Part shown: positions 19,839 through 64,000 of the stretch, in pieces
How the letters are laid out: the number at the start of each line of letters is the position of its first letter
Numbering within the stretch: the stretch's first letter is position 1
Origin: Rhodospirillaceae bacterium
Lineage (GTDB): Bacteria > Pseudomonadota > Alphaproteobacteria > GCA-2731375
Length of the DNA: 64,000 bases
Direction of reading: 5' to 3'
Assembly: GCA_018667855.1 (NCBI GenBank)
Contig: JABIRL010000182.1
Span: 5,503-69,502 of the forward strand
The notes under the pieces: generated by a model
Database searches by the model: none
The model's input: the letters and a program-made list of their open reading frames with translations, nothing else
What the model was told of the DNA's origin: nothing
Program-made: the position numbers and the translations under genes

Positions 19839-21314
19839 CTATTGGACCAGGTGGGAGCTGGATGTAATCAGGATCGGCGTCGTGCCGGCGCTGTCACAGG
19901 ACGAATTCAGTGTGGAATTGCCGGTAAAATCAATGGTCTGGGCGATGACCTGCGTGCAGGTGGAACCGCCCGTGGTATTGCCGCCCGTGAACTCGATCGC
20001 TTCGTTGGGAAAATACAGCGCACCCGTGAAGTTGGTGGTGGAACCACCATTGAATTTGTTCTTTGTGGTCGAGGCCGCATCTTTATCCTGATAAAACACC
20101 ACGCCCGAATAATCACCGCTGGTCGGTGCCGCCAGAGTGACGATGGCGCCGCCATTGATGGTGACGGAACCCGGTGAATCGCCGTCACTGTCGGTCAAAA
20201 TGATGGTAACACCGGTACCTCCATCCACCTCCTTCAGGGTCGCGCCGCCATTGACCGAGAAATTGCCGTCGTCAATGACATAGGTGCCCGATCCCAATTC
20301 AACCGTACCGCCGGTAATTTCAAATTTACCGCAATAGGTGCCGGCGGAGAGTGTGTCGGTGCCGGAGGTATTCTTGTAATTCGTATCAATACAATTGCCT
20401 ACCGTCGGATCGGGCAAACCGCTGTACGGATCGGCGGTCGCCGAGGTGCCGGTCTCGGCCGCGCCGCAGGTCAGGTCGAACTCCGGCGATGCCGCGTCGG
20501 TACCGCCGACGATGCTGGCGCAATTTGCGTCCAGCGTGGCGCTGCCGCCCACTTCAAGGGCATCATCGTCATCGGAATTGGCGGCGACATCGCAACTATT
20601 GAAGGCCACGACGGCATTACCGCCAACGTCGATGGCGCCCTTGGCCGATGAACTGAGCGCCAGGGCGCAGGCGGTGCCGCCGCTGCCCGAACTGGTCGCC
20701 ACGGCGATGGTCTCTATATCGATGGAACTGAAACTGACAATGCCGCCGAAGGTCAAATCAAACGCATTGCCGTTGGATGCTGTTTTGCGAACCGTCACCC
20801 GGGCTGCGTTGACCGGCGTGCCGTTGGCGGTGAAAGCCCGGGTGTCTTCGTCCCAGTTTCCAACCTCCACATCCGCCGACACCAGGACATCACCATGGTC
20901 GGCCGCCGGTAGGTTCAATTCGGTGATGGCCAGGGCCCGGGATTCAGCCTCATCAGAGTCACTGGCGACCGAGGCCGCCGCCAAGGCGGCGGCATCCGCC
21001 TCCCCGCGCATCTGGGCCTGGGCCGAAAGAATGAAACCGACATCCACGGCCAGGCCGGCCAGCGCCAGCAACGGCATCACCAGCAATGCAAAGACCAGCG
21101 CCACGGCGCCGCCGCCTTCTTGACCAAATCGGCCTATCTTTCGCCACCACAAGGCGTTGGCGGCTTTTCCGCCGGCTGTTATCTGTCGTTTCACAATCAT
21201 CTGATCCATCCAAGGTTTTGACGCTTGTCCGTCCCTTAGCCCCCAGACATCAAAGAAGCCCAAATTTCGCGGTCGCACAATAATTCGTACATAGCCGCCA
21301 CGGCCCGACTGCAA
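19839..21314 (-). CDS. TadG-like (Flp-pilus-assembly TadE/G-domain) large pseudopilin-like protein
   Basis: The N-terminal segment GGGAVALVFALLVMPLLALAGLAVDVGF is the TadE/TadG N-terminal helix. The remainder is Gly/Thr/Ser/Asp-rich beta-rich sequence. Real start is probably internal (MIVKRQ ... or later). Confidence 0.55.
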   Translation of the reverse strand: MQSGRGGYVRIIVRPRNLGFFDVWGLRDGQASKPWMDQMIVKRQITAGGKAANALWWRKIGRFGQEGGGAVALVFALLVMPLLALAGLAVDVGFILSAQAQMRGEADAAALAAASVASDSDEAESRALAITELNLPAADHGDVLVSADVEVGNWDEDTRAFTANGTPVNAARVTVRKTASNGNAFDLTFGGIVSFSSIDIETIAVATSSGSGGTACALALSSSAKGAIDVGGNAVVAFNSCDVAANSDDDDALEVGGSATLDANCASIVGGTDAASPEFDLTCGAAETGTSATADPYSGLPDPTVGNCIDTNYKNTSGTDTLSAGTYCGKFEITGGTVELGSGTYVIDDGNFSVNGGATLKEVDGGTGVTIILTDSDGDSPGSVTINGGAIVTLAAPTSGDYSGVVFYQDKDAASTTKNKFNGGSTTNFTGALYFPNEAIEFTGGNTTGGSTCTQVIAQTIDFTGNSTLNSSCDSAGTTPILITSSSHLVQ

Positions 21315-21872
21315 CTATTTCTTACTGCTTTTCTTCTTGCTGTTATCCGAGGATTTCTTGCTGGTACACGATCCTTTCTTCTTTCCGCAGCTGGTGTTGT
21401 TTTCGCTTGATTCCTCTAGATACATACTCGCCGTCACCGACATGGTCTGATCTCCGACAAGTTCATCGGGATAGGCGTTGACCAACGCGGCATCCGCCAT
21501 GGGCGTAGATATTGATACCGTGATCGTGGCCGCGGATGTTCCCAGCCCGTCGGTGGCGGCGGTGACTGTAAACGTGCCCTTGGCATTGCCATCCGACAAA
21601 AGGGTCTCAGCCAAAGTTACGGTTTCTTCCGTGGACAGGGCCGCGCCCGTGACATAACCGCGGGCCGCCTCCCTAGCCGCATAAAACATCACATGGCGGG
21701 AGAACATGATGGAGGCGAATTCGACGATGCCGAAAAGAACGATCAGCATGATCGGGAAAATCAACGCGAATTCAATGGCGATGGCGCCGCGTTTATTGCC
21801 CCGTCGTCGGATAAACAGGCGTCTTTTGGATTTTTCCGTCATCCGGTCGGCCATCCCCATTTGAGCATCCAA
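21315..21872 (-). CDS. TadE-like pilus-assembly protein with a Lys/Ser-rich C-terminal tail
   Basis: GAIAIEFALIFPIMLIVLFGIVEFASIMF is the TadE N-terminal motif. The C-terminus is SCGKKKGSCTSKKSSDNSKKKSSKK. Confidence 0.65.
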   Translation of the reverse strand: MDAQMGMADRMTEKSKRRLFIRRRGNKRGAIAIEFALIFPIMLIVLFGIVEFASIMFSRHVMFYAAREAARGYVTGAALSTEETVTLAETLLSDGNAKGTFTVTAATDGLGTSAATITVSISTPMADAALVNAYPDELVGDQTMSVTASMYLEESSENNTSCGKKKGSCTSKKSSDNSKKKSSKK

Positions 21873-21961
21873 CTTATGAAACTATTCTAGCGTTAAGGAA
21901 CCCTTATGACAATTTCGATGCGGTTTGCTTCAACAAGTTTTGAAACCACCCGTAAATACGC

Positions 21962-22525
21962 TCAGGAGTTCGGCAGCGTTGTGTGAGACAGCCGGGTGGT
22001 ATCGAAACTTGGCAAATCCAATTGGCTTGGCAGTCCGGGAAGGTAGCGCACCGCCACGAAATTATAGGCCAGGCCGGTGACCTCGACCGTAATCAGAGGC
22101 GTTATCGTCTCGCCCGTACCGCTGATATCCAAACCGCTGTCCGTGTAGGTGACAATGACGTTGGCGGCGGTAATACGGGACGATACCTCCCTCATTGCCG
22201 ATACCACGGCATCGAAGGTGGCGGAATTATCCACCGTGACGCCATTGCAAGACACACCGCCCGAACCGCTGCAAGGTACCGGCGTCGATGCCAATTCGGC
22301 CAGATCGATAATCGGGTCCTCGGTCAGGGCCGTGCGCAGGCCGCGCCGGGTGGCCTCGGAAATCTTGTGGTAATCAAACATGATCAGCCCACCCTCCAGC
22401 GCGCCAAGCGTGAGGAGGAGGAGCGCCGGAAGGATCAGTCCGAATTCCACCGCCGTGGTGCCTTTGCGGCATTTGCGCCATCCCCCGGCGATCCGTTTCA
22501 GCTGTTTTATTCTGTCCCAAGCCAT
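21962..22525 (-). CDS. TadE-like pilus-assembly protein
   Basis: GTTAVEFGLILPALLLLTLGALEGGLIMF N-terminal TadE motif. Confidence 0.65.
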   Translation of the reverse strand: MAWDRIKQLKRIAGGWRKCRKGTTAVEFGLILPALLLLTLGALEGGLIMFDYHKISEATRRGLRTALTEDPIIDLAELASTPVPCSGSGGVSCNGVTVDNSATFDAVVSAMREVSSRITAANVIVTYTDSGLDISGTGETITPLITVEVTGLAYNFVAVRYLPGLPSQLDLPSFDTTRLSHTTLPNS

Positions 22526-22528
22526 GGA

Positions 22529-23029
22529 TCAATCTCCCACATAGGCCTGTTCATGGGCGGCATTCATGGTAATCGACATGAAGCCATAGGTATGTAGAAG
22601 CCCGCTGAACAGGGCCTTGTACGGCACCGACGCCACGACTTTTATGACCTCGTAGCTATTGCCGCCGGCGCTGTATGTTGATGTGGTTACCGCCAGGCTC
22701 GACGCGCCGTCGGACCAGCCCGGAACCACAAAATCGCCCGAGCCGTCCGCCGTGCCGGTCTTCACCAAATTTTCGATCGTGGCTTGCGAACCACCCGACA
22801 GCGGCAGGCTGGAGCGGGCCGCCAACATAGCGCCAACCCGTAGACTTTTGTCCAACTCGTTGGATTGATTGATGTAGTAGCCAAAATCAATGATGCCCAC
22901 CATGACCAGCGCCAGCAACGGCGCGAACAGGGCGAATTCCACCGCCGCGATGGCACGGCGACATTTCAACGCCGCGACCGCGTTGCCCGAAACCTTAGTC
23001 AATAAGCTGAACATTGACATGTACGTCAT
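22529..23029 (-). CDS. TadE-like pilus-assembly protein
   Basis: AIAAVEFALFAPLLALVMVGIIDFGYYINQ N-terminal TadE motif. Overlaps the upstream gene's stop by ~35 nt, so the start may be internal. Confidence 0.6.
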   Translation of the reverse strand: MTYMSMFSLLTKVSGNAVAALKCRRAIAAVEFALFAPLLALVMVGIIDFGYYINQSNELDKSLRVGAMLAARSSLPLSGGSQATIENLVKTGTADGSGDFVVPGWSDGASSLAVTTSTYSAGGNSYEVIKVVASVPYKALFSGLLHTYGFMSITMNAAHEQAYVGD

Positions 23030-24383
23030 CCGAATACTGTTGCAACAAGGGTCCGATAACTTCCGTGTAGGTATCCGCCAGGGTACCCGCGACTTCCTCG
23101 GTCAGGAAAACTTCCACGTAGCGGCCATAGGTCGGATAGTCGCCGCTGCCCTGTACGCCAAGCGCGGTACAATTCAATACGGCGATTTTCATGACCCGCC
23201 GTTTGATTTCCGATGAGGCCGTGGACGAAGGCACCCCCGCCGCCGGAATGGAAGCTCCGGACGGCGTCACGGTGGTATAGGTGCCGGGCTTGGTAATGCC
23301 GTCCGTGGGATAAATGGTTTTGTTGTCATACCGGTAAAACGTTTCACCCAGTTCATACAGAAACACCTGGTAACGGGTGTAGTTGACCAGATCGGCGGGT
23401 TCGGTTTCGCCGGAATGATTGGTCGACCAATAGGACACCGGGTCCCAATCACCGTTGCCGATGATGGTGCTGCCGGACATGTCGGAATCCCGGCCATAGC
23501 CCATGATATTTTGGGATGGATATTTCGGGTTCTTGGTACCGGAATCCATGCGCGCATTGATGCCGTTGATGGCCTGCTGGGTTTGCGAGCCGGGCGATGT
23601 GGTGACGATGGAGGTGTAACAAAGGCCCGGATCGTTAGCCAGGGCATCACCAACGCTGGCCGCACCGCAATTACCCGATGATGGGCACAGAAGGCCGAAA
23701 TTGCCCGGCGCCAGGGTGCCCCCGCCCGGGCCGGTCTTGGTCAATAACTGGCGGCCGGCATTGTCGGCATCCAGCAGATCGTCGCTAGGGTTGCCGCCCT
23801 CGGCCGGATTGCAGGCCATAAAGGGTGGAGCGGCGCAGACAATGGGCTCGATACCCGCCCGTGCCGTACCTTCGAGGGTAAATTGATCCGCCACCACGCC
23901 GCTGGCAATGGTCTCCAGCACCGGCGCCAGGAATATGGAAATTGTCCGGGGGACCAAGGTCACCGCGACCATAACGGCTTCATCATCGACCGTCGTGACC
24001 AGCGGCGTCGGGTCGGTATCGTCGTAAAACACTATGCTTTGCACGGTGAAGGCGCCGGATGGATCGGTCAGGGAGGTGGTATTGGTAATGGCGTTGGAAG
24101 CCGCCGCGGTGCCCCGGTTGATGGCGCCGGACTGGCCGTCAAGCTGTGCGGCGGCCGACAGGGCCGCGGAATCGGCAGCGTTTTGCATTTGCGAGCGAAG
24201 CACCACGACCCGGCCGATATCCAGGGCCAAGACACCGCCCGAAAGCGCCAGGGTTCCGGCGAAAGCGACATAAATAGCCGTCGCGCCGCTGCGGTCCTTC
24301 ATCATGGATGTCAGTGCCGACCAAATGCGCGCCACATATCCTTGACGTGGTTTCCTGCCCGGTATTACCTCGGCCCTCGTCAT
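22995..24383 (-). CDS. TadG-like pilus-assembly protein (large pseudopilin)
   Basis: N-terminal GATAIYVAFAGTLALSGGVLALDIGRVVVLRSQMQNAADSAALSAA matches the TadG family N-terminus. 462 aa, Gly/Thr/Ser-rich. Confidence 0.6.
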   Translation of the reverse strand: MTRAEVIPGRKPRQGYVARIWSALTSMMKDRSGATAIYVAFAGTLALSGGVLALDIGRVVVLRSQMQNAADSAALSAAAQLDGQSGAINRGTAAASNAITNTTSLTDPSGAFTVQSIVFYDDTDPTPLVTTVDDEAVMVAVTLVPRTISIFLAPVLETIASGVVADQFTLEGTARAGIEPIVCAAPPFMACNPAEGGNPSDDLLDADNAGRQLLTKTGPGGGTLAPGNFGLLCPSSGNCGAASVGDALANDPGLCYTSIVTTSPGSQTQQAINGINARMDSGTKNPKYPSQNIMGYGRDSDMSGSTIIGNGDWDPVSYWSTNHSGETEPADLVNYTRYQVFLYELGETFYRYDNKTIYPTDGITKPGTYTTVTPSGASIPAAGVPSSTASSEIKRRVMKIAVLNCTALGVQGSGDYPTYGRYVEVFLTEEVAGTLADTYTEVIGPLLQQYSDDVHVNVQLID

Positions 24384-31825: not shown

Positions 31826-32500
31826 ATGCTATTGGCCATCGAAGGTATTGACGGCGCCGGCAAGGGAACTCTGTGTGGAGAGTTATTGGCCCTGGCGGAG
31901 GCAGCCGGCGTTCGGGCGGCGGCGCTGTCTTTCCCCCGTTACGAGGAAACCCGTTTTTCCGAACTGGTGGGCGCCTACCTGCGCGGCGACATGGGCGCCA
32001 TTGATCAGGTTCCCGTTCGCTACGCCGCCCTGTTGTTCGGCGGCGACCGCTTTGAAAGCCGCGGTAAACTGATGACGTTGATCGCCGATCATGACCTGAT
32101 CATCCTGGATCGCTATGTTTCCTCCAACATCGCTTACAACGCCGCCAAGCTTTCCGGAGTTGCGCGGGCCGAGCTGATCGCCTGGATCGAACAACTGGAA
32201 TTTGGCTTGTTCGATCTGCCCCGCCCGGATCTAACCTTACTGTTGGCGACCTCCACCCAGCTGGCGGACCGATTGGTCGGCGAAAAGGATGCCCGCAGCT
32301 ACACCGAACAGACCCGCGATATGCACGAAGCCGACCGTGACTATCTGACCATCGTCACGGAAGTCTATGGCGATCTGGCCAGGTCGGGCGGCCAGGCCTG
32401 GCTGACCGTTGATCCCCTGGACGACAACGGCAAACTGCGGCCGCCGTCGGATATTGCGGCGGCGATCTGGGCGGATGCCAGATTTTCCGAACTAAGGTAG
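31826..32500 (+). CDS. Thymidylate (dTMP) kinase family P-loop kinase, likely a paralogue
   Basis: LAIEGIDGAGKGT P-loop, LDRYVSSNIAY (DRY motif) and a lid region, at Tmk-like length. Confidence 0.55.
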   Translation: MLLAIEGIDGAGKGTLCGELLALAEAAGVRAAALSFPRYEETRFSELVGAYLRGDMGAIDQVPVRYAALLFGGDRFESRGKLMTLIADHDLIILDRYVSSNIAYNAAKLSGVARAELIAWIEQLEFGLFDLPRPDLTLLLATSTQLADRLVGEKDARSYTEQTRDMHEADRDYLTIVTEVYGDLARSGGQAWLTVDPLDDNGKLRPPSDIAAAIWADARFSELR

Positions 32501-32833
32501 TTCCAGACGCACCACCAGGGCGGCGGAGGCGATCACCGCCACGTCACCCAAGGCTTCATCGGGCACGTCCAGGCCGCCCTTCACCACATTCACGGTGACG
32601 GTACCGTAAGGCAGAGCCGCCTGTACCGCCGCCTTGTCCACCGCGTCGGGTTTCTGTACGCCGATGGTGACGTCCACATACATACCGTCGGCGCCGACGC
32701 CCAGGGTCCGCAGCATGGTCAGCGAGGAATGGTGCAGGGCATCATCGACGGCCCGACGGGCGGCCTTGGTATAATCACCGCCGTGCAGATCGTTGCCGGC
32801 ACCCATTTCCAAAATAACGCGTTTCTTGGTCAT
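32492..32833 (-). CDS. Small conserved hypothetical protein, possibly Lin0512-type family; tandem paralogue A
   Basis: 113 aa, MTKKRVILEMGAGNDLHGGDYTKAARRAVDDALHHSSL ... About 45% identical to the next gene. Confidence 0.4.
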   Translation of the reverse strand: MTKKRVILEMGAGNDLHGGDYTKAARRAVDDALHHSSLTMLRTLGVGADGMYVDVTIGVQKPDAVDKAAVQAALPYGTVTVNVVKGGLDVPDEALGDVAVIASAALVVRLELP

Positions 32834-32845
32834 GATGAACTCTCC

Positions 32846-33187
32846 CTACGCCACATCCAGATACACAACGGCGGCGGCGTGGGCCATGATCGTTCCATCC
32901 GTGCCGGCCTCATTGGGTATTTGCAAACCGCCTTCTACGACCTCCACCGTGCCGGTACCGTGGGGCAGCACGGCGAGCACTTGCTCCTTGTCCACCTGAT
33001 CCGGTTGCGGGACGCCGATGGTCACGGCCACCTGCATGGAATCCACATCCAGGTCCAGGGCGTGGGCCACGGTCAGGGAATTGTGCCATAGCGCATCCCG
33101 CAGGGCGCGGACCGCCGCTTTGGTCGAATCCGTGCCACGAATATCGGTACCCATGCCGATCTCCAGCACCATACGTTTCATTGTCAT
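32846..33187 (-). CDS. Small conserved hypothetical protein; tandem paralogue B
   Basis: MTMKRMVLEIGMGTDIRGTDSTKAAVRALRDALWHNSL ... with the same architecture as paralogue A. Confidence 0.4.
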   Translation of the reverse strand: MTMKRMVLEIGMGTDIRGTDSTKAAVRALRDALWHNSLTVAHALDLDVDSMQVAVTIGVPQPDQVDKEQVLAVLPHGTGTVEVVEGGLQIPNEAGTDGTIMAHAAAVVYLDVA

Positions 33188-33278
33188 GTTAAAATCGTCT
33201 CCCGTGAAATCTATCTGCATATGCATTAGTGTTTCGTGTCGGGGAAGTCCAGGCCGGCGTCGGAAACGGAGAGGAAGC

Positions 33279-34094
33279 ATGGCTGATCTGAGAATATTTT
33301 CTTACATGCCGAACCCGCGTATCTGGAAGGCGACCATCGCTGCCCGCCTTTGCGGTGTCGAGCTGGACCTGCGCGGCGCCAAACCAGGGCAATTGGCAGA
33401 CTGGCTGTGGGATTTCGACGCCCGCCCGCTGACAGCGGAAGACCGGGCCAAGCAGGGTGATTTGGCGCGGCAAAGCCGAACCGGATTTTCGGGACAGCTG
33501 TTCAAGACCGATGCCTTCCTGGCGGCGCATCCCTTCGGCACGGTGCCGGCGGCCTTCAGCCCGGATGGCGAGGTCGGCATATTCGAATCCAACAGCATCG
33601 CCCGCACCGTGGCACGGCTGCGCCGCCATGGCCCCGACCTTTATGGCGATGATCCCTATGCCGCCGCCCGCATCGACAGCTTCCTTGATGTCAGTCTGGT
33701 GTTCGCGCGGGATGGCCAAGTTTATCTGCTGTCCCTGAACAACGGTTCCGTGGATGAGGGTATTCACGGCAACGCGGCGGCGGCCTATGAAACATACATG
33801 AACGGGATGGAGGCTGCCCTTTCGCCGGATCACGCCTATTTAGTAGGTGATGATCTGACCCTGGCGGATATCGTCTTCGTGGCGGAACTATGCTCCTTCG
33901 CCCGGGAAGCGGCACATCTGGAGCGCCTGGCGGAGCGAAACCTGCCGACGATATTCAAGTTCGATGCACCCGCATCTCACCCACGGGCCATGGCCCATTT
34001 CGAAAGACTTTGCCAACATCCCGCATTCGTGCCGGACATCGAGCCATTTATGGAAAAGTTAGAGGCGCGGCGACTGAAATCCGCAACCGGCTAG
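33279..34094 (+). CDS. Glutathione S-transferase-like protein
   Basis: 271 aa from MADLRIF, with a thioredoxin-like N-domain and helical C-domain pattern. GGAGAGGAAG RBS. Confidence 0.55.
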   Translation: MADLRIFSYMPNPRIWKATIAARLCGVELDLRGAKPGQLADWLWDFDARPLTAEDRAKQGDLARQSRTGFSGQLFKTDAFLAAHPFGTVPAAFSPDGEVGIFESNSIARTVARLRRHGPDLYGDDPYAAARIDSFLDVSLVFARDGQVYLLSLNNGSVDEGIHGNAAAAYETYMNGMEAALSPDHAYLVGDDLTLADIVFVAELCSFAREAAHLERLAERNLPTIFKFDAPASHPRAMAHFERLCQHPAFVPDIEPFMEKLEARRLKSATG

Positions 34095-56944: not shown

Positions 56945-57466
56945 GTGCCGGTAACAGATAACCAGCTGGGAGAGGTGGAGCGCCTGATCGGACCGTCGGT
57001 CGAGGCGATGGGTTTCCGCCTGGTGCGTCTGGCCCTGATGGGTGAAGACGGGCAGCCGACGTTACAGGTAATGGCTGAGCCATTGGATGAGAGCGAAATG
57101 AACGTTGATCATTGCGCCGATCTCAGCCGGGCCATATCCGCCATTCTGGATGTCGAGGATCCAATCCCCACGGCCTATTCTTTGGAAGTCAGCTCCCCCG
57201 GCGTCGACAGACCGCTGGTTCGGGCGGCGGATTTTGAACGGTTCGCGGGCTATCAGGCCCGCGTCGAAGCTGACGAGCCGATTGACGGCCGCCGCCGCTT
57301 TGTCGGTCGTTTGCTGGGCCTGGACGGGGAACGCGTAAAAGTTTCCGTAACCGACAGCGACGATAGCGTAAAAGAGTTCGCCATTCCTTTCGAGACTATT
57401 GCCCGCGCCAAGTTGGTGCTGACCGATGATTTGATCAAAGATACCTTGAAGAAGAGAAAAAATTGA
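56945..57466 (+). CDS. rimP: Ribosome maturation factor RimP
   Basis: Conserved RimP pattern (AMGFRLVRLALMGEDGQPTLQVMAEPLD ... YSLEVSSPGVDRPL) directly upstream of nusA. GTG start. Confidence 0.85.
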   Translation: MPVTDNQLGEVERLIGPSVEAMGFRLVRLALMGEDGQPTLQVMAEPLDESEMNVDHCADLSRAISAILDVEDPIPTAYSLEVSSPGVDRPLVRAADFERFAGYQARVEADEPIDGRRRFVGRLLGLDGERVKVSVTDSDDSVKEFAIPFETIARAKLVLTDDLIKDTLKKRKN

Positions 57467-59049
57467 TGGCCGATGCACAAACAGTCGTAGGCGCGAACCG
57501 TCTGGAGCTATTGCAAATTGCCGACGCGGTGGCGCGGGAAAAAGCAATCGACGCGGAAATCGTCGTTGAGGCGATGGAGGAGGCAATCCAGAAAGCCGCC
57601 CGCTCCAAATATGGTCAGGAAAACGAAATTCGTGCCGAGATTGACCGCAAGACAGGCAATATCGGTCTGTACCGGCTTTTGGGCGTGGTTGATGAAGTGG
57701 AGAACCCGGCCACGGAAATTCTGCTGTCCGAGGCACTGGGCCGCAACCCCGATGCCCGTGTTGGCGATCTGATCTCGGAAGTTCTGCCGCCCATCGATTT
57801 CGGCCGCATCGCGACGCAGACCGCCAAGCAGGTCATCGTACAAAAGGTCCGCGAGGCCGAACGGGAGCGGCAATACGAAGAATACAAGGACCGCATCGGC
57901 GAAGTGGTCAACGGCGTCGTCAAGCGGGTGGAATACGGCAATGTATTGGTCGATCTGGGCCGGGCCGAGGCCATCGTGCGCCGGGACGAGGCGCTGCCCC
58001 GGGAAAGCCTGCGCCAGGGCGACCGTATCCGGGCCTACATTTATGACGTTCGCTCGGAGCCGAGGGGACCGCAGATTTTTCTCTCCCGCACGCATCCCCA
58101 GTTCATGGCTAAACTGTTCACCCAGGAAGTGCCCGAAATCTATGACGGCATTATCGAAATCAAGGCCGTTGCCCGTGATCCGGGCAGCCGGGCCAAGATT
58201 GCCGTCGTATCCAATGACAGCAGCATAGATCCGGTCGGCGCCTGTGTCGGCATGCGGGGCAGCCGCGTACAGGCCGTGGTCAATGAACTGCAGGGTGAGA
58301 AAATTGACATCATTCAGTGGATCCCCGATCCGGCCGCCTTCCTGGTCAAAGGCCTGGCGCCGGCTGAAGTGGTCAAGGTGGTGATGGATGAAGAAGCCCA
58401 GAAGTTCGAGGTCGTGGTGCCCGACGAGATGTTGAGCCTGGCCATCGGCCGGCGCGGCCAGAACGTTCGACTGGCCTCGCAACTGACCGGCTGGGAAATT
58501 GACATCCTGACGGAGGAAGAGGAATCCGAGCGGCGCCAGGAAGAGCTGCGCCAGCGCAGCGAGCTGTTCATGGAGGCTCTGGTTATCGATGAAATGATGG
58601 CGCAGTTGCTGGCGACCGAAGGTTTCCGCTCGGTCGAGGAAGTCGCCTTCGTCGAGGCAGAGGAACTGGCCAGCCTGGAAGGTTTCGATGAGGACCTGGC
58701 CGCTGCCCTGCAGCAACGCGCCAGCGACTATCTGGACGCCCGGGATGCGGAATATGATCAACAAAGGGTCGATTTGGGCGTGACGGAAGAGTTGGCGGCG
58801 CTGGAGGGTCTGACGCCGGGCATGCTGGTCGCCCTGGGTGAGCAGGACATCAAGGAATTGGATGATTTCGCCGAATTAGCCACCGACGAACTGGTCGATC
58901 CCGGCGATGGTCTGTTGCGGGATTTCGAACTGGACGAGGAAACAGCGGCGGCCATGATCATGGCGGCGCGGGCTCATTGGTTCGAGGACGAAGATCAAGC
59001 CGAAGCCCCGGCTGATGCGGTCGCCGAAGATGGCGAAGCCGAGGCATGA
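57463..59049 (+). CDS. nusA: Transcription termination/antitermination factor NusA
   Basis: N-terminal domain, S1, KH1/KH2 (IAVVSNDSSIDPVGACVGMRGSRVQAV) and C-terminal acidic repeats. Confidence 0.95.
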   Translation: MMADAQTVVGANRLELLQIADAVAREKAIDAEIVVEAMEEAIQKAARSKYGQENEIRAEIDRKTGNIGLYRLLGVVDEVENPATEILLSEALGRNPDARVGDLISEVLPPIDFGRIATQTAKQVIVQKVREAERERQYEEYKDRIGEVVNGVVKRVEYGNVLVDLGRAEAIVRRDEALPRESLRQGDRIRAYIYDVRSEPRGPQIFLSRTHPQFMAKLFTQEVPEIYDGIIEIKAVARDPGSRAKIAVVSNDSSIDPVGACVGMRGSRVQAVVNELQGEKIDIIQWIPDPAAFLVKGLAPAEVVKVVMDEEAQKFEVVVPDEMLSLAIGRRGQNVRLASQLTGWEIDILTEEEESERRQEELRQRSELFMEALVIDEMMAQLLATEGFRSVEEVAFVEAEELASLEGFDEDLAAALQQRASDYLDARDAEYDQQRVDLGVTEELAALEGLTPGMLVALGEQDIKELDDFAELATDELVDPGDGLLRDFELDEETAAAMIMAARAHWFEDEDQAEAPADAVAEDGEAEA

Positions 59050-59086
59050 AGAGATAAGTAGGATTAGTGGGATAACGAACGGCACG

Positions 59087-59737
59087 ATGGGACAATTGGC
59101 AACCTTGGCAAGACCAGGAAAGGCGGCGGATGAAACGCCGGTACGGCGCTGTATCGCCACCGGCGATACGATGCCCGTGGATGGTTTGCTACGGTTCGTG
59201 GTTGGGCCGGAAGGCCAGCTTTGCCCAGATTTGGGCCGGGAATTGCCGGGCCGTGGCATCTGGGTGGGCGGACGCAGGGAATTGGTGGAACGGGCCGTGA
59301 AAAAACGCCTGTTCGCCCGCGCTGCAAGATCCGCCGTTACAGTGGCCGAAGATCTTGCCGAACAGATCGAGGGGCAATTGCAGCGCCGCTGTCTGGCGTT
59401 ACTGGGACTGGCCCGGCGGGCTGGTCAATTGACCGTGGGTTATGAGAAAGTGCGCGCCCTTTTGACTGCCGAACCTTCGGCCATTGCCGTCACGGCTCAT
59501 GATGGCTCTCTGAGAGGGCGTCAGAAACTGTTAAGCGGGCTGCAGGGCGAGGGTGGAGATGATGGTAAGGGCGGGCGCAGGGTCGTTACGCATTTCGCCA
59601 TTGAAGAATTGAGTTTGGCATTGGGCGGTGAAAATGTGGTACATGCTGCCTTGCGGGCCGGCGGCCTGGCAGATCGCTTTATGGGCGAGTGCCGCCGACT
59701 AGAGGATTTCCGCCACGAAACGGCCCGGTTGGCCTGA
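59087..59737 (+). CDS. YlxR (DUF448)-like RNA-binding protein fused or adjacent to an L7Ae-like domain
   Basis: RRCIATGDTMPVDGLLRFV is the YlxR motif. The C-terminal part resembles L7Ae/YlxQ. Conserved nusA-infB interval gene. Confidence 0.6.
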   Translation: MGQLATLARPGKAADETPVRRCIATGDTMPVDGLLRFVVGPEGQLCPDLGRELPGRGIWVGGRRELVERAVKKRLFARAARSAVTVAEDLAEQIEGQLQRRCLALLGLARRAGQLTVGYEKVRALLTAEPSAIAVTAHDGSLRGRQKLLSGLQGEGGDDGKGGRRVVTHFAIEELSLALGGENVVHAALRAGGLADRFMGECRRLEDFRHETARLA

Positions 59738-59838: not shown

Positions 59839-62487
59839 ATGGGACAAGACGACGTGAGTGATTCGGGTAAGAAAAAGACCCTGAGCCTTGGGGGCGGTGA
59901 ACCCCTTCGCCTGAAACAACCTGGCGAAGGCGGCGGTGCGCCGTCACGCGGCGGTATGGGCGGCGGACGCAAGACCGTCAAGGTTGAAGTGCGGCGGCGG
60001 CGGGCGCCTGCCCGCGGGAGCCAAGCGCCCGAGGCCTCGAGCCCGGTCGCCAGCCCTGAACCGGTCAAACAGCCGGCGGCTGCCGCTGAAAAAGTGGTGG
60101 AGGCGAGCGCCGTCACCGAAACCGTGGCTCCGGCCCCGGCCGCACCAGCGCCCCCGGCGACGGCGGACGCGGGGCCGGGACGTACACGTCATGTCTTGAA
60201 AACACTATCGACCGAGGAAAAATCGGCCCGTGCCCGTGCCCTGGAGAATGCCCAGGCGGCGGATCAGGCGGCCCGGGCCAGGGCCGAGGAAAATGCCCTG
60301 CGCCAAGCCAAGGAAGCGGCCCGCGTGGCCACCGAGCGCGAGGCCGCCGAGACCCGGCGTCATGAAGAGGAAGCTCGGAAGAAATCCGAGGATGACTCGC
60401 GCAAAAAGTCCGAGGAAGAAGCCGCCCGCAAATTACAGGAAAACGAAGCCAAGGCAGAGGCAGAGGCCGCCGCTCATGGCGATACGGTGGGCAAGCGTCC
60501 GTCACCGGCGGCCGGTGATGCCGCCGGACGCCGGGTCGAGCGGCGACCCGTGGAGCGCCCGAAACCAACGCCCCGCGCCCGTACGGAGCCGCGGCGCCGG
60601 GCCGGCCGCATCACGGTTACCGAGGCCTTGGCCGATCGCGAAGAACGTGTCCGCAGTCTGACCTCCATTCGCCGGGAGCGGGAGCGGCGCAAACAGCTGG
60701 CCGCGGAAAGCGGCGAAAGCCAGGGCAAGATCCTGCGTGAAGTCGTGGTGCCGGAAACCATCACGGTACAGGAACTGGCCAATCGCATGGCCGAACGGGG
60801 CGTTGATGTCGTGCGCTCGCTCATGGGTCTGGGCGTCATGGCGACGGTTAATCAGACCATTGATGCGGATACGGCGGAACTGGTCGTGGCGGAATTCGGC
60901 CACAGATTGCGGCGGGTTTCTGAATCCGATGTGGAAATCGGTCTGAAGGGCGATGCCGACGACCAAGGCGATCTGCAAGCCCGTGCACCGGTGGTGACCG
61001 TTATGGGTCACGTCGACCACGGCAAGACGTCGCTGCTGGATGCCATTCGCGAGGCGGATGTCGCCGCGGGCGAGGCCGGCGGCATCACCCAACATATCGG
61101 CGCCTATCAGGTCACGACGCCGGCAGGCAGCAAAATCACCTTTATCGACACCCCGGGTCATGCGGCCTTCACCGCCATGCGCGCCCGCGGCGCCCAAGTG
61201 ACCGATCTGGTGGTCCTGGTGGTCGCCGCCGATGACGGCGTCATGCCGCAAACCATCGAGGCCATCAATCATGCCAAGGCGGCGAACGTGCCCCTGATCG
61301 TGGCGGTGAACAAGATGGATTTGCCGGATGCAAATCCGAATAAGGTCAAACAGGAATTGCTGCAGCATGAAGTGATCCCGGAGGAAATGGGCGGCGAGGT
61401 ACAGATCGTCGAGGTTTCCGCCATCAAAAAGCAGAACCTGGACGGACTTGAAGAAGTCATCCAGCTTCAGGCTGAGCTTCTGGAGCTGCAGGCCAACCCC
61501 AACCGCCCCGCCGAGGGTGTGGTGGTCGAAGCGAAGCTGGACCGCGGCCGCGGCGCTGTTGCCACGATTTTGGTGCAGCGCGGCACATTGTCGGTGGGCG
61601 ATATCTTTGTCGCCGGCGGCCAATGGGGCCGGGTGCGGGCCCTGCTGGACAGTCATGGCGACCATGTTGAAAGCGCCGGACCATCCATGCCTGTCGAAGT
61701 CCTTGGCCTGAACGGCGCGCCGGGCGCGGGTGAGGAATTCAACGTGGTCGAGAGCGAAGCCCGGGCCCGGGAAGTTGCCGAATACCGTCAGCGCGTGGAA
61801 CGGGAACGCCGGGCCACGGCCGGTGCGCGGGGCAGTCTGGAAGAAATGTTCTCTAACCTGTCTTCCAGCGAAACCAAGGAATTCCCGCTGTTATTCAAGG
61901 CCGATGTGCGCGGCTCGCTCGAGGCGATCACCTCGGCGGTCGAGAATTTGGGTAACGATGAAGTTTCCGCCAGGGTGCTGCATGGCGGCGTCGGCGGTAT
62001 CACGGAATCCGATATTGATCTGGCCCGTGCCTCGAACGCGGTGGTAATCGGCTTCAATGTGCGGGCCAATCCCCAGGCCAAGGAAATGGCGCGGCAGGAA
62101 AATGTCGATATCCGCTATTATTCCATCATCTATGAATTGGTCGATGATCTGCGCAAGGCCATGAGCGGCCTGTTGGAACCGGAAATCCGCGAAACCGTTA
62201 TCGGCGGGGCCGAAGTATTGGAAGTCTTTTCGATCTCCATACTGGGCAAGATCGCCGGTTGCCGTATCAACAATGGTCTGGCCCGCCGCCAGGCCAAGGT
62301 CCGGTTACTGCGGGACGACGTGGTCATCCATACCGGCAGCATGAAATCCCTGAAACGCTTCAAGGACGATGCCAGCGAAGTGCGCGAGGGCAATGAATGC
62401 GGCGTCGCCCTGGAAAGTTACCAGGATATTCAGGCCGGCGATCAGTTGGAATTCTTCGAGGTCGAGGAAGTCGAACGCTCCCTATAG
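59839..62487 (+). CDS. infB: Translation initiation factor IF-2
   Basis: Long Ala/Glu/Arg-rich N-terminus, G-domain ([26 protein letters not shown]), and C-terminal domains through ... EVEEVERSL. Start taken at MGQDDV; an upstream in-frame ATG exists at 59797. Confidence 0.95.
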
Positions 62488-62526: not shown

Positions 62527-63024
62527 ATGATCATGGCAAGCCATCGTGATACCGGGCGTCAAGACATTCGCCAGGGGGCGCGGGGTCCATCCCAGCGCCA
62601 GCTGCGTGCCGGCGAATTGATCCGTCATGCTGTGGCGGAAGTTTTGACCCGTGAAGAAATCCATCACGAGGATCTGGCGGGCGTCGCCATCACTGTTACG
62701 GAAGTCAGTCTTAGCCCTGATTTGCGCCAGGCAACCTGCTATATCATGCCCCTTGGCGGCAAGGATGCGGACCAGGTCCTCGCCGCGCTGCACAAGACAG
62801 GGCCATGGTTGAGCGGCCAGGTCGCCCGGCGGGTAGACTTGAAATTCACGCCGCGTTTGCATTTCCGCATAGACGAAAGTTTTGACAACGCTGATCATAT
62901 CCAACAGTTGCTGCGGCGTGACGATGTGGCGCCCGATCTGAGGCCCAACTCTGAAGAGCGGCCCGAAGAGGTGCCGGGAGAAGTGTCCGAAGATATGTCG
63001 GAAGAGGGCGCCGATGGGGCGTAA
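62527..63024 (+). CDS. rbfA: Ribosome-binding factor A, with an acidic C-terminal extension
   Basis: QRQLRAGELIRHAVAEVL ... KH-like RbfA core. About 35 extra acidic C-terminal residues. Confidence 0.85.
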   Translation: MIMASHRDTGRQDIRQGARGPSQRQLRAGELIRHAVAEVLTREEIHHEDLAGVAITVTEVSLSPDLRQATCYIMPLGGKDADQVLAALHKTGPWLSGQVARRVDLKFTPRLHFRIDESFDNADHIQQLLRRDDVAPDLRPNSEERPEEVPGEVSEDMSEEGADGA

Positions 63025-63910
63025 GCGACGTGGCAGGCCCGTCCATGGCTGGTTCATCTTCGATAAGCCATAGGGCATGACCTCCACCCAGGCGGTCGCG
63101 AAAGTACGCCGCGCCTTTGACGCCGCCAAGGCCGGTCATGCGGGCACTTTGGATCCCTTGGCCAGCGGTGTTCTACCCATTGCCATGGGCGAGGCGACCA
63201 AGGTTGTTTCTGCCGCCATGGACGGCGCCAAGGCCTACCGCTTCACTATTCGCTGGGGCGAAGAGCGGGATACGGATGATGCCGAAGGACAGGTGATTGG
63301 GCAAAGCGATAGCCGGCCGGCGGCGGCCCGGATCGAGGCTGCCCTGGCGCAATTCACCGGCGAGATCGAACAGGTTCCGCCCGCATATTCCGCCATCAAG
63401 GTGGACGGGGCCCGGGCCTATGACCTGGCCCGCAGCGGCGAGACGCCCAAATTGGCGGCACGGCTGATCAGGATCGACGAGTTGGCCCTGATTGATTGCC
63501 CCGACCCGGACCATGCGGTGCTGGAAATGATCTGCGGCAAGGGCGCCTATGTGCGCGGTTTGGCCCGTGATCTGGGCCGCCATCTGGGTTGCCTTGGACA
63601 TGTCAGTGAACTGCGCCGGGCAAGGGTCGGACACTTCGACGAAGCAATGGCGATTTCGCTGGATAAACTCGAGGACATGGGGCATAAGGGGGCGCTCGAC
63701 GACCTGCTTTTGCCGGTCGAGGCTGCGCTGGCCGACATCCCGGCGCTGGCCGTGACCGGTCCGGAGGCTGAACGTCTACGTTTTGGACAAGCCATCCGGG
63801 TTCCGCATAGCGTCGAGGGAACCGTATACGCGACGACCGACGGCAGACCGGTAGCACTGGCCAAAATTCATGCTGGAGAAGTCAAACCGGTGCGGGTCTT
63901 TAATCTGTAA
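63014..63910 (+). CDS. truB: tRNA pseudouridine(55) synthase TruB, interrupted by an in-frame TAG at 63071-63073 where a Gln codon is expected
   Basis: The [62 protein letters not shown] translation is collinear with E. coli [64 protein letters not shown]. ATG at 63014 overlaps the rbfA end. An ATG at 63077 immediately follows the TAG. Confidence 0.8.
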
Positions 63911-63956: not shown

Positions 63957-64000
63957 ATGTCGATTACGGCTGAACGCAAGACCGAATTGATTGGCGAATA
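63957..64000 (+). CDS. rpsO: 30S ribosomal protein S15, N-terminal fragment (continues past the window)
   Basis: MSITAERKTELIGE is the S15 N-terminus. AGGAGA RBS. Conserved truB-rpsO order. Confidence 0.7.
   Translation, partial: MSITAERKTELIGE

Follow-up and report, generated by a model that had tools for sequence, protein, structure and literature searches.

The gene truB, encoding tRNA pseudouridine-55 synthase, is interrupted at its twentieth codon by an in-frame amber codon in the stretch of DNA analysed here (64,000 nt of a contig from a Rhodospirillaceae bacterium, in the following referred to as the window). The lesion is a single T to A change at position 63072, which turned the ancestral TTG (Leu20) into TAG; it is rare among sequences of the same population and occurs in one further contig. 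The feature is probably an ordinary strain-level nonsense SNP, i.e. a knock-out allele of truB in a marine population of Rhodospirillaceae type that has not been cultured. There is nothing novel about features of this kind.

The truB frame opens with an ATG (63014-63016), from which 19 TruB-like codons lead to the TAG (63071-63073), a GGC and a second ATG (63077-63079); the frame that begins at this second ATG comprises 277 codons and ends with TAA at 63908-63910. The original prediction had described an amber codon in truB with an ATG two codons further on, and a truB start that overlaps the stop region of rbfA; both descriptions are borne out by the sequence, ATG 63014 being situated in the last 11 nt of rbfA. 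When the stop is bridged, the resulting protein matches the Pfam families TruB_N (E 6e-50), TruB_C_2 (3e-17) and TruB_C (2e-7), and from residue 4-7 up to the C-terminus it aligns with two structures of E. coli TruB, 1R3F and 1K8W (E 1e-53 and 7e-51). The 19 upstream codons are therefore the true N-terminus of TruB and not a fortuitous match. Motif II (GHAGTLDP, consensus GHxGxLDP), the columns of which are invariant in the homologue alignment, is retained with its catalytic Asp 3' of the stop, and all three TruB Pfam domains are encoded downstream of ATG 63077. The first beta-strand and the D-K-P of motif I are likewise encoded, yet they are split from the rest of TruB by the TAG, so that no single uninterrupted ORF covers the protein.

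Pfam matches and the gene calls on near-identical contigs give the operon order rimP-nusA-ylxR-infB-rbfA-truB-rpsO (Table 1), in agreement with the earlier placement of truB within a nusA-infB-rbfA-truB-rpsO operon. At the place that corresponds to the truncated rpsO of the window, three same-population contigs (L087, L088 and L092) possess an 89-aa Ribosomal_S15 gene. The native truB start is preceded, at a distance of 5 nt, by a Shine-Dalgarno (SD)-like GAGGG, and no promoter-like site was found near truB.

Table 1. Position of truB, its amber codon and the neighbouring operon genes in the window (all coordinates refer to the 64,000 nt stretch).
Feature	Position	Strand	Basis and remarks
rimP, nusA, ylxR	56945..59737	+	Pfam RimP_N/C, NusA_N/KH, YlxR; gene calls
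ylxR	59087-59737	+	Pfam YlxR
infB (IF2), ends in TAG	59839..62487	+	Pfam IF-2, GTP_EFTU, IF2_N; near-identical contigs agree; frame checked
rbfA (ribosome-binding factor A)	62527..63024	+	Pfam RBFA, E 3e-25; stop TAA 63022-63024; last 11 nt overlap the native truB start
truB 5' segment (native ATG, 19 sense codons, amber codon)	63014..63073	+	N-terminus same as in the intact 298-aa TruB of close relatives and same-population contigs
Amber stop TAG, truB codon 20	63071..63073	+	Derived base A at 63072; ancestral codon TTG (Leu)
Remaining truB ORF, 277 codons and TAA	63077..63910	+	Starts at the first in-frame ATG, 3 nt past the stop
rpsO (S15), start only, cut by window end	63958..64000	+	Preceded by AGGAG

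Elsewhere in the window, the minus strand of 19839-24383 harbours a run of ORFs with short N-terminal hydrophobic segments of the TadE/TadG type (e.g. AIAIEFALIFPIMLIVLFG), which, as judged from the predicted proteins, resembles a portion of a Flp/Tad pilus assembly cluster. Also on the minus strand, two small paralogous ORFs of 113 and 144 aa are arranged in tandem (32492-32833 and 32846-33280). The two occupy one reading frame, with a TAG and 12 nt between them, and share the pattern ...E[IM]G[MA]G.D..G.D.TKAA.RA..DAL.H.SL....

The state of the codon in close relatives can be read from environmental sequences. The exact RbfA protein of the window is present on 26 public environmental contigs, 14 of which (L087-L100) formed the DNA comparison set; they are 97.2-99.97% identical to the window, and 12 of them reach at least 99.5%. 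Thirteen carry TTG (Leu) at codon 20, and gene callers predict an intact 298-aa truB from the same ATG in each; a 298-aa truB call is also found on a 403-kb JGI contig, and the intact protein (P0121) has been deposited in NCBI, JGI and ENA as TruB [Rhodospirillaceae bacterium]. Among the matches listed in a scan of the GTDB representatives, the highest identity was 88%. It had been proposed that sister strains with an intact codon would indicate a strain-specific lesion only, and this is the pattern found, the intact codon being TTG and not CAG. The one contig with TAG, L099 (1267 bp), belongs to an assembly record of its own (sample SAMN05224512), and its differences from the window at 62103 and 62240 show that it does not duplicate the window. 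A metagenome-wide scan with the 39-nt context and a free codon matched one contig only, which was already part of the comparison set, and the 85-aa partial product of L099 had no match in the protein collection, so no further TAG-bearing contigs came to light by these two routes.

Apart from the amber codon, the truB of the window is indistinguishable from the intact allele: 63072 is the sole window-specific difference within the gene, and contig L089 differs from the window over 2958 bp at this position alone. The lesion is thus young, as no other window-specific change has accumulated within truB. Several lesions or a relaxed constraint along the gene, as expected of a decaying pseudogene, were not seen.

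The nature of the replaced codon differs from what had been assumed at the outset. The amber codon was thought to stand at a conserved Gln position and to have replaced CAG by a C-to-T change at 63071. The residue that separates DKP from G is in fact variable in the 120 best homologues (L 38, V 20, A 15, Q 8, E 7, R 6, plus further residues), and it is Leu in almost all close relatives; in the ten closest other loci (76-83% DNA identity) the equivalent codon is CTG, CTC or CTT. An origin of the TAG from CAG at a conserved Gln is ruled out by this residue spectrum and by the TTG of the same-population contigs, and the actual change is the T to A at 63072.

These comparisons also bear on a decoding of the TAG by a suppressor tRNA, by codon reassignment or by efficient read-through, any of which would yield a full-length TruB. 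The sole point in favour of this possibility is the otherwise flawless reading frame to either side of the TAG, and we consider such a decoding extremely unlikely. The codon is not conserved, sense codons being present in 13 of the 14 same-population contigs and in all relatives. Moreover, TAG is not avoided as a terminator: in 51 crude gene calls (made with a home-made codon-usage caller, so that some of these ORFs may be wrong) it ends 22 genes, infB included, against 19 for TGA and 10 for TAA, and where neighbouring genes share a frame, a TAG divides them cleanly. A share that makes TAG the commonest stop is high for a bacterium. A search of the window for other internal stops with coding signal on both sides returned none, the top matches being adjacent but separate genes in the same frame, and neither tRNA genes nor Rfam families were found within the window. 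Of the explanations initially offered, a sequence error and a genuine nonsense mutation with restart at ATG 63077 are both compatible with the single-base lesion observed, whereas amber read-through or suppression as a property of the organism finds no support, since TAG is an ordinary stop here and the relatives carry a sense codon.

How such a lesion compares with other variation in the population can be judged from the surrounding 11 kb. A look-up with NusA added five contigs (L102-L106), which match the window over 6-9.6 kb with 99.97-99.99% identity. Of the variable sites between 52.6 and 64 kb, 63072 and 62240 are the only two at which the window departs from the majority base, for which reason its consensus is not generally error-prone. 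The ten variable sites in these 11 kb comprise three synonymous, five missense and two nonsense changes, i.e. seven of the ten alter a protein, two of them to stops, and the truB TAG thereby takes its place among this population's class of rare variants. Three of the protein-changing SNPs (62240, 63072 and 63672) are A/T transversions at second codon positions; the surroundings of the A/T variant sites were inspected for a motif or palindrome in common, and none was seen. A spectrum so rich in protein changes fits very young mutations that have not yet been purged as well as it fits consensus or sequencing errors.

Several of the other variants deserve a description of their own. The second nonsense SNP of the operon occurs in a different assembly, contig L104 (MAG GCA_018661265.1, of the same population), where G to A at the equivalent of window position 59262 changes Trp59 of ylxR from TGG to TAG (W59*) and splits the 216-aa gene (L104:6512-7144) into calls of 52 and 146 aa. 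Position 62240 falls in codon 801 of infB (counted from ATG 59839), which reads ATA (Ile) in the window and in L088, L089, L091 and L100, and AAA (Lys) in the other ten contigs as well as in 88 of the other loci examined. The codon lies within the conserved IF2 motif S-K-[LIV]-G-K-[IV]-A-G-C, so that a conserved residue in an essential gene is here subject to a non-conservative polymorphism. In addition, two otherwise near-identical contigs end in dense clusters of mismatches (43 in L096:3-200 and 23 in L097:1-95, corresponding to about 61807-62001 of the window), which are mostly located at third codon positions of infB and resemble a segment that was derived from a more distant lineage, either by recombination or as a chimera.

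The alternative that carries the most weight against a natural allele is an artefact of sequencing, assembly or consensus calling, in which the organism has TTG and the A at 63072 was miscalled or stems from a chimera. We regard this as rather unlikely. It would account readily for the TTG in 13 of 14 same-population contigs, and the predominance of missense and nonsense changes among the population SNPs, with a ylxR nonsense SNP in another MAG and A/T transversions at second codon positions as three of the protein-changing differences, resembles that of unfiltered errors. Furthermore, all four combinations of the alleles at 62240 and 63072, which are 832 bp apart, are seen among the window and the 14 contigs, the TAG being associated with both 62240 alleles; this implies recombination, recurrent change or a chimeric consensus in mixed-strain assemblies, the last of which would speak for an artefact. 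However, the identical base is present in L099, which comes from another assembly record and differs from the window at two further sites, and two independent random errors at the same site are very unlikely. The window also keeps the majority base across the 11 kb save for the shared 62240 allele, and De Bruijn-graph assemblers require the TAG k-mer to be present in the reads, which likewise counts against an artefact. A real allele is therefore favoured, because the TAG is found in two assembly records, and we infer from these comparisons that the variant is biological rather than an error. Against this biological reading it has to be counted that the window and L099 could share one sample, which would remove their independence.

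If the codon is real and read as a stop, the product has to be considered. Termination at the TAG followed by reinitiation at ATG 63077 could give a working 277-aa TruB, alone or together with the 19-residue peptide, in which case the gene would have been remodelled and not lost. Stop and restart codon are indeed close enough, with a gap of 3 nt between TAG and ATG, and ribosomes should arrive at the TAG, given that the position of the native start suits a coupling to rbfA; the GHAGTLDP motif and the three Pfam domains would all be retained in the restart product. In E. coli reporter pairs, a gap of +2 nt reduced termination-reinitiation by only 5, 20 and 70% in comparison to the native overlap (PMC10666635). 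Nevertheless, an SD sequence is absent from the region about 5-10 nt 5' of ATG 63077 (the upstream sequence reads gttcatcttcgataagccatagggc), and the sole purine-rich match, AGGG, ends 1 nt before the ATG. Of five E. coli pairs from which the SD had been removed, three lost 60-90% of their reinitiation and one lost it altogether (PMC6728339).

More serious for a working restart product is the segment that it would lack. Residues 1-21 include six positions that are invariant in the homologue alignment (M1, G7, G12, W13, D17 and K18) and the nearly invariant P19 and G21. They also contain the predicted first beta-strand (residues 12-17), according to the AlphaFold model (mean pLDDT 83.7) of a homologue that is 91% identical and has the same N-terminus. 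Spedaliere and colleagues are said to have reported in 2000 that Lys19 and Pro20 of motif I are important for the activity or stability of E. coli TruB. A start at the Met of ATG 63077 is seen in none of the 120 best homologues, and the shortest of them (289 aa) still possesses the N-terminal segment; neither the gene-position index nor a collection of 15 billion proteins contains the exact 277-aa product. On the strength of these sequence features a functional restart product appears very improbable, and the 277-aa polypeptide, if made, would be expected from the alignment and the structural model to be null or near-null, amounting to a loss of function.

A rare knock-out allele thus remains the preferred reading, and it would operate as follows. 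Almost all other assemblies of the population have the normal allele, which encodes the standard 298-aa tRNA pseudouridine-55 synthase and is translated in coupling with rbfA. In the variant, ribosomes that begin at ATG 63014 would terminate after 19 codons, and some of them may restart at ATG 63077, with a product that is most likely inactive. As truB is non-essential, such an allele could persist for a while, though it would be costly in competition. In E. coli, truB is non-essential, yet deletion strains are outcompeted by the wild type (PMC11214086), and the viability of laboratory strains that have lost truB explains how an allele of this kind can exist.

A stronger claim would be that the amber allele is a real loss-of-function polymorphism that is maintained in wild marine Rhodospirillaceae and has come to lie on two haplotype backgrounds by recombination or recurrence. 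We consider this quite improbable; if it were true, the loss of TruB, or a restart-derived TruB without beta-strand 1, would be tolerated or conditionally favoured in nature.

For annotation, the locus should be flagged as truB with a single nonsense SNP (Leu20 to amber), neither as a shorter TruB nor as a case of amber recoding, and beyond this it is of little importance. Were reads to confirm an appreciable frequency, it would be a small natural example of a wild population in which the knock-out of an almost universal tRNA modification enzyme segregates, and it would then be relevant to a question of long standing, namely the strength of selection on TruB in nature as opposed to the laboratory. 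As the present case shows, when a metagenome-derived sequence has a stop within a conserved gene, a comparison with contigs of the same population is the best way to resolve it.

The truB of the window can be compared with several known systems. It belongs to the same family as other bacterial TruB proteins, the tRNA pseudouridine-55 synthases (E. coli, PDB 1K8W and 1R3F), with the same domain order TruB_N, TruB_C_2, TruB_C, and it shares with the E. coli enzyme the catalytic Asp of motif II and the place in the operon after rbfA and before rpsO. It differs from the E. coli gene in being broken at codon 20, the uninterrupted ORF lacking strand 1 and the DKP motif. Classic cases of translational restart are known from lacI and T4 rIIB. 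With restart polypeptides and with termination-reinitiation coupling in operons the locus has in common an early stop that is followed within a few nt by an in-frame ATG, such a small distance being favourable to reinitiation (PMC10666635), but in contrast to known restart cases a suitably spaced SD is missing here, and the restart product is a putative one.

Rocha and colleagues reportedly described in 2006 a time-dependent dN/dS among very closely related bacterial genomes. The excess of protein-changing and nonsense polymorphism among very close bacterial genomes is likewise seen in this population, in which seven of ten SNPs at 99.97-99.99% identity between 52.6 and 64 kb change the protein, although the present sequences are metagenome assemblies with ten SNPs only, in which consensus errors could mimic such an excess. 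Finally, the loss of truB has counterparts in the E. coli Keio truB deletion and in the truB disruptant of Thermus thermophilus, which represent the same viable loss of a conserved but non-essential tRNA modification and chaperone enzyme (PMC11214086; PMC3064792). Those deletion and disruption strains were engineered in the laboratory, whereas the amber codon described here would be a putative natural, rare allele.
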